Source of the DNA: Geodermatophilaceae bacterium
GTDB taxonomy: Bacteria > Actinomycetota > Actinomycetes > Mycobacteriales > Geodermatophilaceae
DNA: 24,000 nt
NCBI GenBank assembly: GCA_013812145.1
Contig: JACCTY010000019.1
Location: 1 to 24,000 of the forward strand
Reading direction: 5' to 3'
Shown here: positions 3,676 to 12,750 of the stretch, one piece after another
How the letters are laid out: every line of letters starts with the position of its first letter
How positions within the stretch are numbered: the first letter of the stretch is position 1
Position numbers and translations under genes: made by a program
Notes under the pieces: generated by a model
What the model was told of the DNA's origin: nothing
The model's database searches: none
Seen by the model: the letters and a program-made list of their open reading frames with translations, nothing else

Positions 3676-3888
3676 ATGCCCGACGAGCGCAACCGGTCCG
3701 ACATTTCGGCGCTCCTGACCAGCGGCATGGTGATCGCGCTATGCCTCGTGATCGGGCTGGGTCTGGGTTGGTTCCTGGATGCGGCGGTAGGCACAACACC
3801 GGTGTTCCTGCTGATCGGACTCCTGCTCGGAGTCGTCGCAGCCGGCTGTTATACGGTCGCGGTATTCCGCAAGCAGCTCAGACCCTGA
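3676..3888 (+). CDS. atpZ: AtpZ/AtpI-family small membrane protein (F0F1 ATPase-associated)
   Basis: 70 aa with two TM helices (MVIALCLVIGLGLGWFLD / PVFLLIGLLLGVVAAGCYTV). It sits immediately upstream of atpI-atpB. Confidence 0.75.
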   Translation: MPDERNRSDISALLTSGMVIALCLVIGLGLGWFLDAAVGTTPVFLLIGLLLGVVAAGCYTVAVFRKQLRP

Positions 3889-3917
3889 AAAAGGTACGTC
3901 GAGGTGAGAGGCCAGCC

Positions 3918-4319
3918 GTGCAACCCGAGCTGACTGTCCCGACCGTTGCCGACGCCACTTTCCGCCGGGCGGTCGTGGTGGCCTGCATCCTCGGCGCGGT
4001 CGCCTTGGTGGCGTCGGTCCCGCTCGGATACGTCACCGCAGCGCTGTTCGGTTGCATCGGTCTCGCGCTGGGCATGCTCAACTCGCGGCTCGTGCAGCTG
4101 TCCGTTGTACGGTTCGCGAAACAGGAATCGTCGCGGCCGAAGCGACAGTTCGTCGGATCGGTCGTCGGTCGGCTCGCCCTGATCACATTGCTCGCCCTGA
4201 GTCTGGCTCTGTTGTTTCGCCCTGACGGCCTGGGTGTGATCGTCGGCCTGGCGGTCTTCCAGCTGCTCATGATCATTGTCGCCTCGATACCGATGATCAA
4301 GGAGCTCAGGGGCTCATGA
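3918..4319 (+). CDS. atpI: ATP synthase protein I (AtpI)
   Basis: 3' part of track ORF 3669..4319. GTG at 3918 is preceded by GGTGAGAGG. The product is a polytopic membrane protein (RRAVVVACILGAVALVASVPLGYVTAALFGCIGLALGMLN...LALITLLALSLALLF...VIVGLAVFQLLMIIVASIPMI). Its stop overlaps the atpB start (ATGATG). Confidence 0.7.
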   Translation: MQPELTVPTVADATFRRAVVVACILGAVALVASVPLGYVTAALFGCIGLALGMLNSRLVQLSVVRFAKQESSRPKRQFVGSVVGRLALITLLALSLALLFRPDGLGVIVGLAVFQLLMIIVASIPMIKELRGS

Positions 4320-5026
4320 TGATTCTGGCCGCCGAGGAGATCGAGATCGGGGTGCACCCCACGGCGACATTCTTCGGTCTTACCTTCAATCTCGACACCA
4401 TGCTGGCCACGGTGATCGCCGGCGTCCTCGTTGTCGGCCTCGGACTGTTCGTTCGCGCCCGCGTCACCGCCGGCGTTCCCAGCGGGGCACAGCTGTTTCT
4501 CGAAGGCGTCAACGCGCAGGTGCGTCGACAGGTGGAGGACAGCGTCGGGATCAAGACCGCGCCGTTCGTCGTACCGCTGGCGATGACGCTGTTCCTGTTC
4601 ATCCTCACCGCGAACTGGCTGGCGGTGCTGCCGAGCGAGCACTACGTCCCGCCCCCCACGGCCGACGTCAACCTGACGTTCGCGCTGGCGCTGTTGGTCA
4701 TCGGGTGGGTGCAGGTGACCGGCATCCGCAAGCGCGGCGCCGGACCGTACTTCAAGCACTTCGCGCAGCCGTACTGGTGGCTGCTCCCGCTCAATCTCAT
4801 CGAGGAACTCGCCAAGCCGGTGTCCCTGGCACTGCGGTTGTTCGGCAACATCTTCGCCGGCGGAATCATCATCTCCCTGATCGCGGGTCTGCCGGCGTAT
4901 CTGCTGTGGGCTCCGACGGCCACCTGGAAGTTGTTCGACCTGTTCATCGGGCTGATCCAAGCCTTCATCTTCGCCCTGCTGACCGTCCTGTACTTCGGTT
5001 CGGCCACGAGCGAGGAGGGGCACTGA
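4316..5026 (+). CDS. atpB: F0F1 ATP synthase subunit a
   Basis: 236 aa with the conserved essential-Arg region KPVSLALRLFGNIFAGGIII and a multi-TM profile. Confidence 0.95.
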   Translation: MMILAAEEIEIGVHPTATFFGLTFNLDTMLATVIAGVLVVGLGLFVRARVTAGVPSGAQLFLEGVNAQVRRQVEDSVGIKTAPFVVPLAMTLFLFILTANWLAVLPSEHYVPPPTADVNLTFALALLVIGWVQVTGIRKRGAGPYFKHFAQPYWWLLPLNLIEELAKPVSLALRLFGNIFAGGIIISLIAGLPAYLLWAPTATWKLFDLFIGLIQAFIFALLTVLYFGSATSEEGH

Positions 5027-5098
5027 CACGAGCAGCTGCTACGTCGTAGTTGGCGTCTCCGGGAACACCCGCAACTTCCGCAGAACGTAAGGAGTGAC

Positions 5099-10069: not shown

Positions 10070-10140
10070 GAGCACGCCTCCGTCCGGGAGCACACAGCCG
10101 GAGCGGACTGGACGGAGGCGTGCGGGGTACTTGTGCTCAT

Positions 10141-11100
10141 TTAGATGTCACTCCCTGCCGCGGACAGCGCGTCGGCGCCGCCGACGATTTCGCTGATCTC
10201 CTGGGTGATCTCGGCCTGCCGGGCCTGGTTGGCCTGTCGGACGAGTGTCTTGGCGATCTCATCGGCGTTGTCGGTAGCTGCCTTCATCGCCCGACGACGA
10301 GCGGCGGACTCCGACGCGGCCGATTCCAGCAGCGCCGCGTACAAGCGGGTGGTGATGTACTTCGGCAGCAGCGCGTCAAGCAGGGTTTCCGCCTCCGGCT
10401 CGAACTCGTATTGCGGCAGCGGACCGTCCGGGGCCTCTTCCTCGGACTCCTCCACGACGAGGGGCACGATCCGGTTCGCCACCGGCACCTGGGTGATCAT
10501 CGACCGGAACTCGGTGTAGACGATGTGCAACTCGTCCACGCCGACCACGCCGTCGTCTCCGGCCTCATCGCCGAGACCCTGCGTCGCAACCTCGGAGATG
10601 TCGTCCTTGCCGGCCGCGAACGCCTTGATCAGGGTTTGGCTCACTTCCCGCGCGTCCTCGTACCGGGGCTGCTCGGAGAAGCCGGTCCAGCTGCCCGCCA
10701 GCTCCCGGTTGCGGAAGCGGTAGTACGCCACGCCCTTGCGCCCGATCACGTAGAGCACAGGCTCCTTGCCCTCGCTGCGGATGAGCTGCATCAGCTCCTC
10801 GGCGGTGCGAAGGGCGTTGACGCTGTACCCGCCGGCGAGGCCGCGGTCACTCGTCACGACCAGTACGCCGGCCCGGTCCGGGTTCTCCCGCTCGGACAGC
10901 ATCGGGTGGTCGACGCTGGCCGAGGACGCCAGCGCGGACAGCACCCGGGTGATCTCCTCGGCGTATGGCTTGGAAGCCTCGACCCGGGCCTGCGCCTTGC
11001 TGATCCGGGACGCCGCGATGAGTTCCATCGCCTTGGTGATCTTCTTCGTCGACTGGACCGAGCGGATCCGCCGACGGAGGACCCGAAGCTGTGCGGCCAC
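10141..11100 (-). CDS. atpG: F0F1 ATP synthase subunit gamma
   Basis: 319 aa. N-terminus [30 protein letters not shown] and C-terminus [19 protein letters not shown]. Confidence 0.95.
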
Positions 11101-11103
11101 CGG

Positions 11104-12750
11104 CTAGTTCTTCTTTTTCGGCTTGTAGACGGTGACCTTCTCCTGGCCCTCGTCCTCGGCGTCCATGGTGTCGGCCTCGGCCTCGTTCACCCGCAGCCCC
11201 TCCCCGGAGGACGTCTCGAACTGACCCTTGAAGTCGGCGACCGCCTTTTTCAATGACTCCACGGTGTCGTCGGAGAGCTGCTTGGTCTCGGCGATGGTGT
11301 CGTAGATGTCCTTGTGCTCACGGCCGACGAAGTCGAGGAACTCGGTCTCGAACCGGCGGACATCGGCGACCGGGACCACATCGAGCTCGCCGGTGGTGCC
11401 GGCCCAGATCGAGACGACCTGGCGCTCGACCGGCATCGGGCTGTACTGCGGCTGCTTGAGCAGCTCCACCAGCCGGGAGCCGCGCTCCAGCGCCGCCTTG
11501 GACGAGGCGTCCAGGTCCGAGCCGAACGCGGCGAAGGCCTCCAGCTCGCGGTACTGCGCCAGGTCCAGCCGGAGCCGGCCGGCGACCTGACGCAGCGCCC
11601 GGACCTGGGCGTTGCCGCCGACGCGGGACACCGAGATGCCCACGTTGATGGCCGGTCGAACGCCGGCGTTGAACAGGTCGCTCTGCAGGTAGATCTGCCC
11701 GTCGGTGATCGAGATGACGTTGGTCGGGATGAACGCCGACACGTCGTTGCCCTTCGTCTCGATGATCGGGAGGCCCGTCATCGAGCCGCCGTCGAGGTCG
11801 TCGGACAGCTTCGCGCACCGCTCCAACAGCCGCGAGTGCAGGTAGAAGACATCGCCGGGGTAGGCCTCGCGACCCGGCGGGCGGCGCAGCAGCAGGGACA
11901 CCGCGCGGTAGGCCTCGGCCTGCTTGGACAGGTCGTCGAAGATGATCAGGACGTGCTGGCCAGCGTACATCCAGTATTGGCCGATTGCCGAACCGGTGTA
12001 CGGCGCGAGGTACTTGAAGCCGGCCGCGTCCGAGGCAGGCGCGGCCACGATCGTGGTGTATTCCAGCGCGCCGGCCTCCTCCAGACCCGCCCGCACGGCC
12101 TGGATCGTCGAGCCTTTCTGGCCGATGGCGACGTAGATGCACTTGACCTGCTGCTTCGGGTCCCCGGTCGCCCAGTTGTCCCTCTGGTTGATGATCGTGT
12201 CGATCGCAACGGCGGTCTTGCCGGTCTGCCGGTCACCGAGAATGAGCTGCCGCTGGCCGCGGCCGATGGCTGTCATAGCGTCGATCGCCTTGATGCCGGT
12301 CTGCAGCGGCTCCTTGACCGGTTGCCGCTCGACGACGGTCGGTGCCTGCAGCTCCAGCGGCCGGCGTTCGTCTGACTCGATCGCGCCGAGTCCGTCGATC
12401 GGCTGGCCGAGCGGGTTGACGACGCGCCCGAGGAATGCGTCGCCCACGGGGACGGACAGGATGTTGCCGGTCCGCTTGACCGACTGGCCCTGCTCCAGGC
12501 CGGCATAGTCGCCGAGGATGACCGCGCCGATCTCGCGGACGTCGAGGTTGAGCGCGATGCCGAGTACGCCGCCCTCGAACTCCAGCAGTTCGTTGGTCAT
12601 GGCGCCGGGGAGGCCCTCGACCCGTGCGATGCCGTCGCCGGTCTCGGTGATCGTGCCGACTTCTTCCCGCGTGACGTCGGGTGAGTACGACGAGACGTAG
12701 TCCTCGATTGCGCTCCGGATCTCCTCAGAGGAGATCGTCAGCTCCGCCAT
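11104..12750 (-). CDS. atpA: F0F1 ATP synthase subunit alpha (with a ~35-aa C-terminal extension)
   Basis: 548 aa. Walker A GDRQTGKT, and full alpha homology from [17 protein letters not shown]... onward. The C-terminal tail is ...[37 protein letters not shown]. Confidence 0.97.

Follow-up and report, generated by a model that had tools for sequence, protein, structure and literature searches.

Split atp operons in bacteria

Split atp operons, in which the genes for the F1Fo ATP synthase are divided between separate units, are lineage-specific in Alphaproteobacteria, Cyanobacteria, Bacteroidetes, Delta- and Epsilonproteobacteria, and most discussions of them raise the possibility that they are relics of a modular past (Niu et al. 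2017, PMC5709465). According to the same survey, 78.6 % of the Actinobacteria genomes covered have a standard single atp unit while about 21 % do not, a ‘delta-b-c-a’ unit is among the recognised atp modules, and a delta/b ‘Rosetta stone’ protein occurs in Gordonia and Mycobacterium (PMC5709465). In the structure of the M. smegmatis enzyme, the peripheral stalk is made of b′ (encoded by atpF) and a b-delta fusion (encoded by atpH) (bioRxiv 10.1101/2020.08.06.225375). A literature search on atp operons in Geodermatophilaceae returned nothing relevant. Here, we describe the atp locus of a Geodermatophilaceae bacterium, located in a stretch of 24 000 nucleotides (nt) (assembly GCA_013812145.1, contig JACCTY010000019.1, positions 1 to 24 000; hereafter the window), in which the Fo/stator genes and the F1 genes form two blocks that face each other.

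The window has a GC content of around 68 %, i.e. that of actinobacterial DNA. The Fo/stator half, atpZ-I-B-E-F-H, is located on the plus strand (3676-7280) and the F1 half, atpA-G-D-C, on the minus strand (12750-8003); both converge at a distance of 722 nt, with an MDMPI_N/DinB-like gene as the sole gene between them. Pfam matches above the curated cut-offs were obtained for a, c, b, delta, alpha, gamma, beta and epsilon as well as for atpI and atpZ, all in uninterrupted open reading frames (ORFs), and the F1Fo gene set at the locus is complete and intact. At the far end of the F1 half, only 47 nt separate the wecA stop codon from the atpA start. An earlier annotation, made from the letters of the window alone and referred to below as the sequence-only reading, had already drawn this map of two convergent blocks with only a DinB-like gene between them and atpA following wecA after 47 nt; every gene named in it was confirmed by Pfam, including atpI (PF03899). 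Against its remark that split loci are not the norm in Actinobacteria stands their wide occurrence among bacteria, the standard unit being absent from about 21 % of the surveyed Actinobacteria (PMC5709465). Our preferred explanation, which we hold with a probability of roughly 0.7, is that this is a functional F1Fo locus derived from one undivided operon, and that a single ancient rearrangement of the resident Fo genes split it in the last shared ancestor of an uncultured clade whose MAGs (metagenome-assembled genomes) are labelled Geodermatophilaceae.

Set against the described systems, the locus is an actinobacterial form of the known split-operon phenomenon and not a new kind of system. With the split of Alphaproteobacteria (Rhodospirillum rubrum type, i.e. 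atpHAGDC and atpIBEXF) and the other surveyed splits it shares the separation of a membrane/stalk unit from a catalytic unit, the inheritance across a whole lineage and the conserved gene order within each unit. In the window, however, the cut lies between alpha and delta, leaving delta (fused to b′) with Fo, whereas the alphaproteobacterial delta gene stays with F1; neither the association of delta with F1 nor the unlinked loci of the alphaproteobacterial type were found here. The halves are also adjacent and convergent within the ancestral locus instead of dispersed as in the surveyed splits, and the outgroups clearly identify the split as a secondary break of a complete operon.

The likeness to the canonical actinobacterial locus (M. 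tuberculosis Rv1302-Rv1314c type) extends to the hom...wecA and pduO flanks, the set of subunits, the orientation of pduO and the gene order inside each half. In contrast to that locus, the Fo/stator block of the window is inverted and placed beyond atpC, wecA abuts atpA, and DUF2550 is missing. The stalk genes resemble those of mycobacteria, i.e. a free b-type gene is followed by a gene for a protein of around 445 amino acids (aa), in which a b domain at the N-terminus is connected by a short linker to an enlarged delta (around 270 aa). Further mycobacterial likenesses are the sequence type of the c and a subunits (74 % and 53 % identity, respectively) and a C-terminal extension of alpha.

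Distribution of the split layout

For comparison, loci labelled L007 to L107 were fetched, with L028 to L107 representing metagenome loci (80 fetched, around 40 of them informative). The search of genome contigs gave three loci, all from MAGs of Geodermatophilaceae, the cultured members of the family being outside the comparison; the nearest public genomes are MAGs labelled ‘Geodermatophilaceae bacterium’.

The split layout was present in every sampled member of the clade, with identities to the window of 88-100 % for atpA and down to 52 % for b-delta, and at least eight distinct species-level relatives carry it. The full layout is visible in L015 (atpA 90 %; on a 390-kb contig) and L029 (b-delta around 77 %, atpA 93 %). 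In L007 and L009 (b-delta 74-79 %) atpH converges on atpC and wecA abuts atpA, the latter being also the case in L020 and L021 (atpA 88-89 %), while L010 (b-delta 63 %) and L014 (b-delta 52 %) show the order pduO-atpZIBEFH, and L013 (b-delta 57 %) shows atpFH, two inserted genes and then atpCDGA on the opposite strand.

In a neighbour-joining (NJ) tree of atpA, the split members formed one clade, with the canonical locus L016 (GCA_965609325.1; atpA 87 %) as its sister. The gene order of L016 is tsaC-wecA-...-atpB-E-F-H-A-G-D-C-DUF2550-<pduO (the sign < denoting the opposite direction), with atpH encoding a delta of 272 aa. Canonical order, i.e. wecA-atpZ/I-B-E-F-H-A-G-D-C-DUF2550-<pduO, including DUF2550 and the convergent pduO, holds for L016 to L019. 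Loci with this order come from a Mycobacteriales MAG (L017), Pseudonocardia nantongensis and Mycolicibacterium mageritense, and the informative metagenome loci were all canonical except for two members of the clade. The canonical order on which the sequence-only reading had relied was thus verified in M. mageritense, P. nantongensis, two outgroups from MAGs or soil metagenomes and around 40 metagenome loci.

Because every sampled member of the clade is split and both the sister lineage and the outgroups are canonical, the split is, as judged from these gene orders and the atpA tree, a single old event fixed in an uncultured soil actinobacterial lineage and not a recent one. The divergence within the clade (b-delta down to 52 %, atpA down to 88 %) points to a depth comparable to that of a genus or family. 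The sequence-only reading had implied a novel event and had itself named a layout shared by related genera as the outcome that would make it a lineage trait; with the split fixed across a deep clade and canonical order at its sister L016, a lineage trait is what was found.

Origin of the split layout

Relative to the outgroups, the block from atpZ to atpH has moved from the wecA/atpA interval to the atpC/pduO interval and is inverted. No single inversion yields the split layout, but two nested inversions that share the wecA-side breakpoint do so in either order. Starting from the ancestral order wecA - P(atp) - atpZ I B E F F′ H A G D C - DUF2550 - <pduO, where P(atp) is the atp promoter, the resident Fo/stator block would have been cut between this promoter and atpZ, and between atpH and atpA, and re-placed in inverted orientation beyond atpC, directly downstream of pduO and in the same direction. 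The likeliest route would be two nested inversions or an equivalent inverted transposition in one step. Whichever inversion came first, the intermediate would place the displaced genes downstream of and co-directional with pduO, and read-through from pduO could have kept them expressed. This derivation from the canonical order, including the insufficiency of a single inversion, had been anticipated by the sequence-only reading, as had the lack of mobile-element scars at the junctions. Indeed, a search for repeats at the junctions found no long direct or inverted ones, only chance-level short matches, and the ORFs at or between the junctions contained no transposase, integrase or recombinase Pfam domains, nor were insertion sequence (IS) ends found there; i.e. 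the breakpoints bear none of the marks of a rearrangement mediated by mobile elements (transposase or integrase genes, IS termini, long repeats).

The left breakpoint is located by the position of a motif in the flank beside wecA. Just after the wecA stop codon, the window contains TGATAACGTC (12787-12796, minus strand), an extended -10-like motif (TGnTAnnnT) and candidate for the ancestral atp promoter. The pattern TG[AG]TA[AG]CGTC was present 19 times in the fetched loci (2.05 Mb in total), each time within the spacer that directly follows wecA and nowhere else. In six canonical relatives it is located 110-210 nt upstream of atpZ (L053:8093, L055:7492, L069:8058, L071:1884, L073:3599 and L080:3133), while in all members of the split clade it precedes atpA (window: 12796-12787; other subclade: 110-151 nt before the gene). 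The ancestral promoter region would therefore have stayed beside wecA, and the F1 half seems to keep the ancestral atp promoter motif, the Fo block having departed without it.

At the other end of the ancestral operon, all canonical loci examined have DUF2550, the homologue of Rv1312, directly after atpC (L016:9897-10136, L017:15440-15874, L018:15471-15920 and L019:15837-16283). None of the split-clade loci has it in the convergence zone, and a tblastn search of the window for DUF2550 or remnants of Fo genes found none. The gene would have been lost in the course of the rearrangement; it may have disappeared altogether or moved elsewhere in the genome. The zone of convergence between atpH and atpC is in turn variable in gene content across the clade: the window has the MDMPI_N gene (7397-7993, plus strand), L007 has nothing (7585-7612), L015 a luciferase-like gene (14578-15582), L013 a luciferase gene and a major facilitator superfamily gene (2064-4337), and L021 an APH gene, a RibD_C fragment and an MDMPI_N gene (14535-16561). 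By this comparison, the MDMPI_N gene of the window is an accessory occupant of a variable insertion zone.

Of the other explanations, a chimeric or mis-joined contig has nothing in its favour besides the unusual order itself and is vanishingly improbable. This possibility, which the sequence-only reading had left to be checked, is excluded because at least four assemblies made independently of each other reproduce the three junctions: an identical AtpA protein is encoded on contigs from different samples with the same 20-kb gene order over all three junctions, which are present at around 100 % identity in ENA ERZ27252441, ERZ27252429 and ERZ27252389 and in JGI 3300012681, on contigs of up to 131.8 kb. 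The central junction, atpH-MDMPI_N-<atpC, is found in six further assemblies (GCA_020063805.1 and five Logan assemblies), and diverged relatives show the same layout. A recent rearrangement confined to the strain or species of the source genome is extremely unlikely as well. The junctions free of mobile-element scars would also fit a clean and recent illegitimate recombination, but the layout is common to lineages whose b-delta is 52-77 % and whose atpA is 88-94 % identical, the sequences at the junctions differ between members, and so do the genes that have entered the convergence zone. It is likewise improbable that the locus is redundant, i.e. that a canonical atp operon elsewhere in the genome does the work and that what is seen here is a surviving F1 set together with a less important Fo set, duplicated or relocated: none of the subunit genes is disrupted and all are conserved throughout a deep clade, the F1 half has kept its ancestral place by wecA with the ancestral promoter motif, and protein searches gave one set of close homologues per lineage.

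The rival that deserves most attention, although we regard it as unlikely, is a replacement of modules in place of an inversion. It presupposes an ancestor that was canonical but had the other Fo type, like L016 today; a foreign atpZ-I-B-E-F-F′-H block would have landed between atpC and pduO, and the resident Fo genes would have been deleted thereafter. The F1 genes and pduO of the window are most similar to those of L016 (A 87 %, D 90 %, G 78 %, C 75 %, pduO 85 %). The a and c subunits are closest to L017, L064 and L062-type lineages (a 64-72 %, c up to 91 %), with identities of 64 % and 76 % to L017, 53 % and 74 % to Mycolicibacterium, and up to 72 % and 91 %, respectively, to other Mycobacteriales MAGs. 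Two a/c types are patchily distributed among the near relatives, always in the canonical position and in a pattern that disagrees with F1 similarity, which suggests that Fo modules have been exchanged or replaced between actinobacterial lineages. An import would also do without a non-viable intermediate. What argues for a resident block is the motif beside wecA: among canonical operons, it was seen solely in those that share the Fo type of the window, where it precedes atpZ, and L016, L018 and the remaining loci with the second type lack it; the a, c and atpI genes of the window all belong to the type of the motif-bearing canonical relatives. This specificity indicates that the resident operon was already of the window’s type. 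Moreover, no close donor was seen, the best a subunit outside the clade being 72 % identical as compared with at least 84 % within it, and neither the delta part nor the b′ part is specifically related to a particular lineage. As an observation on the relatives themselves, the two a/c types occupy the same canonical position and are only around 30 % (a) and 45 % (c) identical to each other (L016:2662-3771 versus 4316-5350 of the window).

A rearrangement of the resident genes nevertheless has several points against it. The a and c subunits of the window are only 29 % and 44 % identical to those of L016, the outgroup whose F1 is most similar; none of the loci compared shows an arrangement between the canonical and the split one; and the stator proteins, compared domain by domain, are saturated at around 50-60 % identity to all outgroups and single out neither sister nor donor. 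The GC content at third codon positions is slightly lower in the Fo genes (0.77-0.89) than in the F1 genes (0.88-0.93), which would suit an imported block, although the difference lies within the local range and is not diagnostic. Finally, scans of sigma-70 and intrinsic-terminator consensus sequences gave nothing above the level of shuffled sequence, such scans being ill-suited to actinobacteria of 68 % GC.

Fusion of b′ and delta

The second change in the clade concerns the stalk. The stand-alone b-type subunit of 197 aa is encoded by atpF (5350-5943, plus strand; PF00430, E 8e-29), immediately upstream of atpH (5943-7280, plus strand), which encodes a fused b′-delta protein of 445 aa with PF00430 at residues 3-132 and PF00213 (OSCP) at 279-441 in one ORF. 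The combination of ATP-synt_B and OSCP in a single ORF with a separate atpF directly before it is that of the mycobacterial-type stalk. Alignment with unfused b and delta proteins assigns residues 1-157 approximately to b′, 158-173 to a linker of around 16 residues and 174-445 to delta, with the former start methionine of delta kept at residue 174; the fusion thus looks like what it is by alignment, a simple end-to-end join of the b′ gene to the next gene. With delta joined to b′, the Fo half contains the genes for the complete stator.

All 24 atpH clusters of the clade are fused, with 441-445 aa and both domains, while b, b′ and delta are encoded by three separate genes in L017, L053, L055, L070 and L080. 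Within the set of 80 metagenome loci, the fusion was restricted to the split clade and the mycobacterial group. From this distribution, the fusion is placed on the same branch as the operon split, on which the second b gene and delta would have become one b′-delta protein.

Whether judged by delta or by b′, the fused protein is closer to unfused relatives than to the mycobacterial fusion. The delta part of the window is 53 % identical to that of Pseudonocardia and 49 % to that of L016, both unfused, versus 44 % to the delta part of Mycolicibacterium, and the b′ part is 34 % identical to mycobacterial b′ versus 43-44 % to unfused b proteins. The fusion is lacking in L016 and L017 and in all lineages whose delta is 45-55 % identical to that of the window. 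In an NJ comparison of the delta domain, which has limited resolution for such fast-evolving proteins, the grouping of the clade with mycobacteria received a bootstrap value of 11 %, and unfused lineages fell between the two fused groups, contrary to what common descent of the fusions would give. Because of these identities, the low bootstrap value and the unfused state of all similar deltas, the b′-delta fusion is probably independent of that in Mycobacterium and Gordonia, i.e. a second origin of the mycobacterial-type stalk.

The coincidence of split and fusion on one branch invites the idea that both are causally linked, in that a delta gene moved away from the F1 genes would have favoured tethering of delta to b′ for the sake of stalk stoichiometry and F1-Fo assembly. 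We consider such a link doubtful.

Expression of the two halves

The halves lie on opposite strands in the window and in all clade members; therefore, they are separate transcripts, as the sequence-only reading had stated, and a shared transcript is not possible. Transcription of atpAGDC would start from the retained extended -10 motif after wecA, with possible added read-through from glyA-wecA (gaps of 8 and 47 nt), and the purine-rich Shine-Dalgarno region upstream of atpA is conserved.

Upstream of atpZ, the hexamer TACTGT (3665-3670, plus strand), a -10-like TANNNT sequence, ends 5 nt before the ATG. TANNNT is located at exactly -11 to -6 of the atpZ ATG in all seven distinct sequences of the split clade, in the variants TACTGT, TAGGGT, TAGCCT and TAGGCT and between variable flanks, and was found at this position in none of the canonical outgroups. 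In mycobacterial promoter architecture, leaderless mRNAs have the geometry seen here, with the -10 element placed just before the start codon. A newly evolved, clade-specific leaderless promoter is thus the likeliest driver of the Fo half: atpZIBEFH would start from this new -10, giving a leaderless atpZ mRNA, with possible co-transcription or read-through from pduO and the 110-aa ORF that precedes it. When the convergence zone and the atpD-atpC spacer were folded as RNA, the z-scores ranged from -1.15 to +1.15, i.e. there was neither significant structure nor evidence of a bidirectional terminator. The retained F1 promoter motif and the leaderless candidate of the Fo half were both overlooked by the sequence-only reading, as were the b′-delta fusion on the same branch and the loss of DUF2550.

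The spacer between atpD and atpC (8393-8623, minus strand) is non-coding, 231 nt long and conserved. It measures 231-246 nt in the subclade of the window only (window, L009 and L029), as compared with 4-5 nt in L013, L015, L016 and L021. Around 60 nt are nearly invariant apart from a 1-nt indel, and the sequence TAGAAT (TAGGAT in some members) is located 37 nt upstream of the atpC ATG. The spacer had no Rfam match, and its fold z-score of -0.27 was not significant. It may represent an internal promoter or a regulatory element for epsilon.

Gene content of the locus and its surroundings

Upstream of the Fo half, an ORF of 110 aa (2682-3014, plus strand) matches no Pfam family; homologues of 110-122 aa are kept beside pduO in relatives and outgroups. 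It is followed by the gene for a pduO-type cob(I)alamin adenosyltransferase (3036-3626, plus strand, likely start at 3054; PF01923, E 8e-60), which is 85 % identical to that of L016 and is still oriented as in the ancestral locus. Immediately behind pduO and in the same direction follows the Fo block, atpZ starting 49 nt after the pduO stop codon. The block begins with atpZ (3676-3888; PF09527, 38.8 bits), encoding a small membrane protein (AtpR/ATPase_gene1), and atpI (3918-4319; PF03899, 30.4 bits), which lies in the frame of the ORF at 3669-4319 and is 73 % identical to atpI of L015. These are followed by atpB for Fo subunit a (4316-5026; PF00119, E 2e-50) and atpE for Fo subunit c of the mycobacterial-like sequence type (5099-5350; PF00137), all on the plus strand.

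The MDMPI_N gene between the halves (PF11716, 45.2 bits) belongs to the DinB superfamily (DinB_2), and its stop codon is 9 nt from that of atpC. On the minus strand, the F1 half consists of atpC for epsilon (8003-8392; PF02823), atpD for beta (8624-10093; PF00006, PF02874 and PF22919), atpG for gamma (10141-11100; PF00231, E 1e-98) and atpA for alpha (11104-12750; PF00006, PF00306 and PF02874). The longest ORF of atpD (start at 10093) encodes 489 aa, while gene callers on identical contigs predict 481 aa from the methionine of MSTLATT at 10069; the latter is probably the true start, the ORF from 10093 being over-extended. AtpA extends by around 40 aa beyond its C-terminal Pfam domain (11104-11226, minus strand). 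This extension resembles that of mycobacterial alpha and is common to all outgroups examined.

Next to the F1 half, wecA (12798-13949, minus strand; PF00953) encodes a GT4 GlcNAc-1-P transferase, its start being matched to that of wecA in L015, and glyA (13958-15232, minus strand; PF00464) is located 8 nt upstream of it. Beyond wecA, the conserved context on the minus strand comprises glyA, tsaC, prmC, prfA, rpmE, rho, thrB, thrC and hom. Rho (18271-20424, minus strand) has 717 aa, with around 300 residues between Rho_N (43-79) and the RNA-binding domain (348-422); its start codon varies between gene calls on near-identical contigs, resulting in 666-717 aa. An Rfam scan of the whole window gave no matches.

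Implications

While split atp operons are viewed as possible relics, the outgroups of this clade show a complete operon that was broken secondarily. Both halves could stay expressed after such a break, the old promoter apparently remaining with one half while the other seems to have gained a new one. The stalk adds a further, probably independent example of the b-delta fusion, hitherto tied to mycobacteria and Gordonia. If split and fusion were indeed linked, the clade would provide a natural experiment on why the mycobacterial-type stalk, which is relevant to the bedaquiline target, evolves. The general understanding of the ATP synthase is left unchanged, and the locus will mainly interest specialists in the evolution of operons and the comparative biology of ATP synthases; for the uncultured actinobacterial clade of soil metagenomes in which it is fixed, it constitutes a clean synapomorphy.

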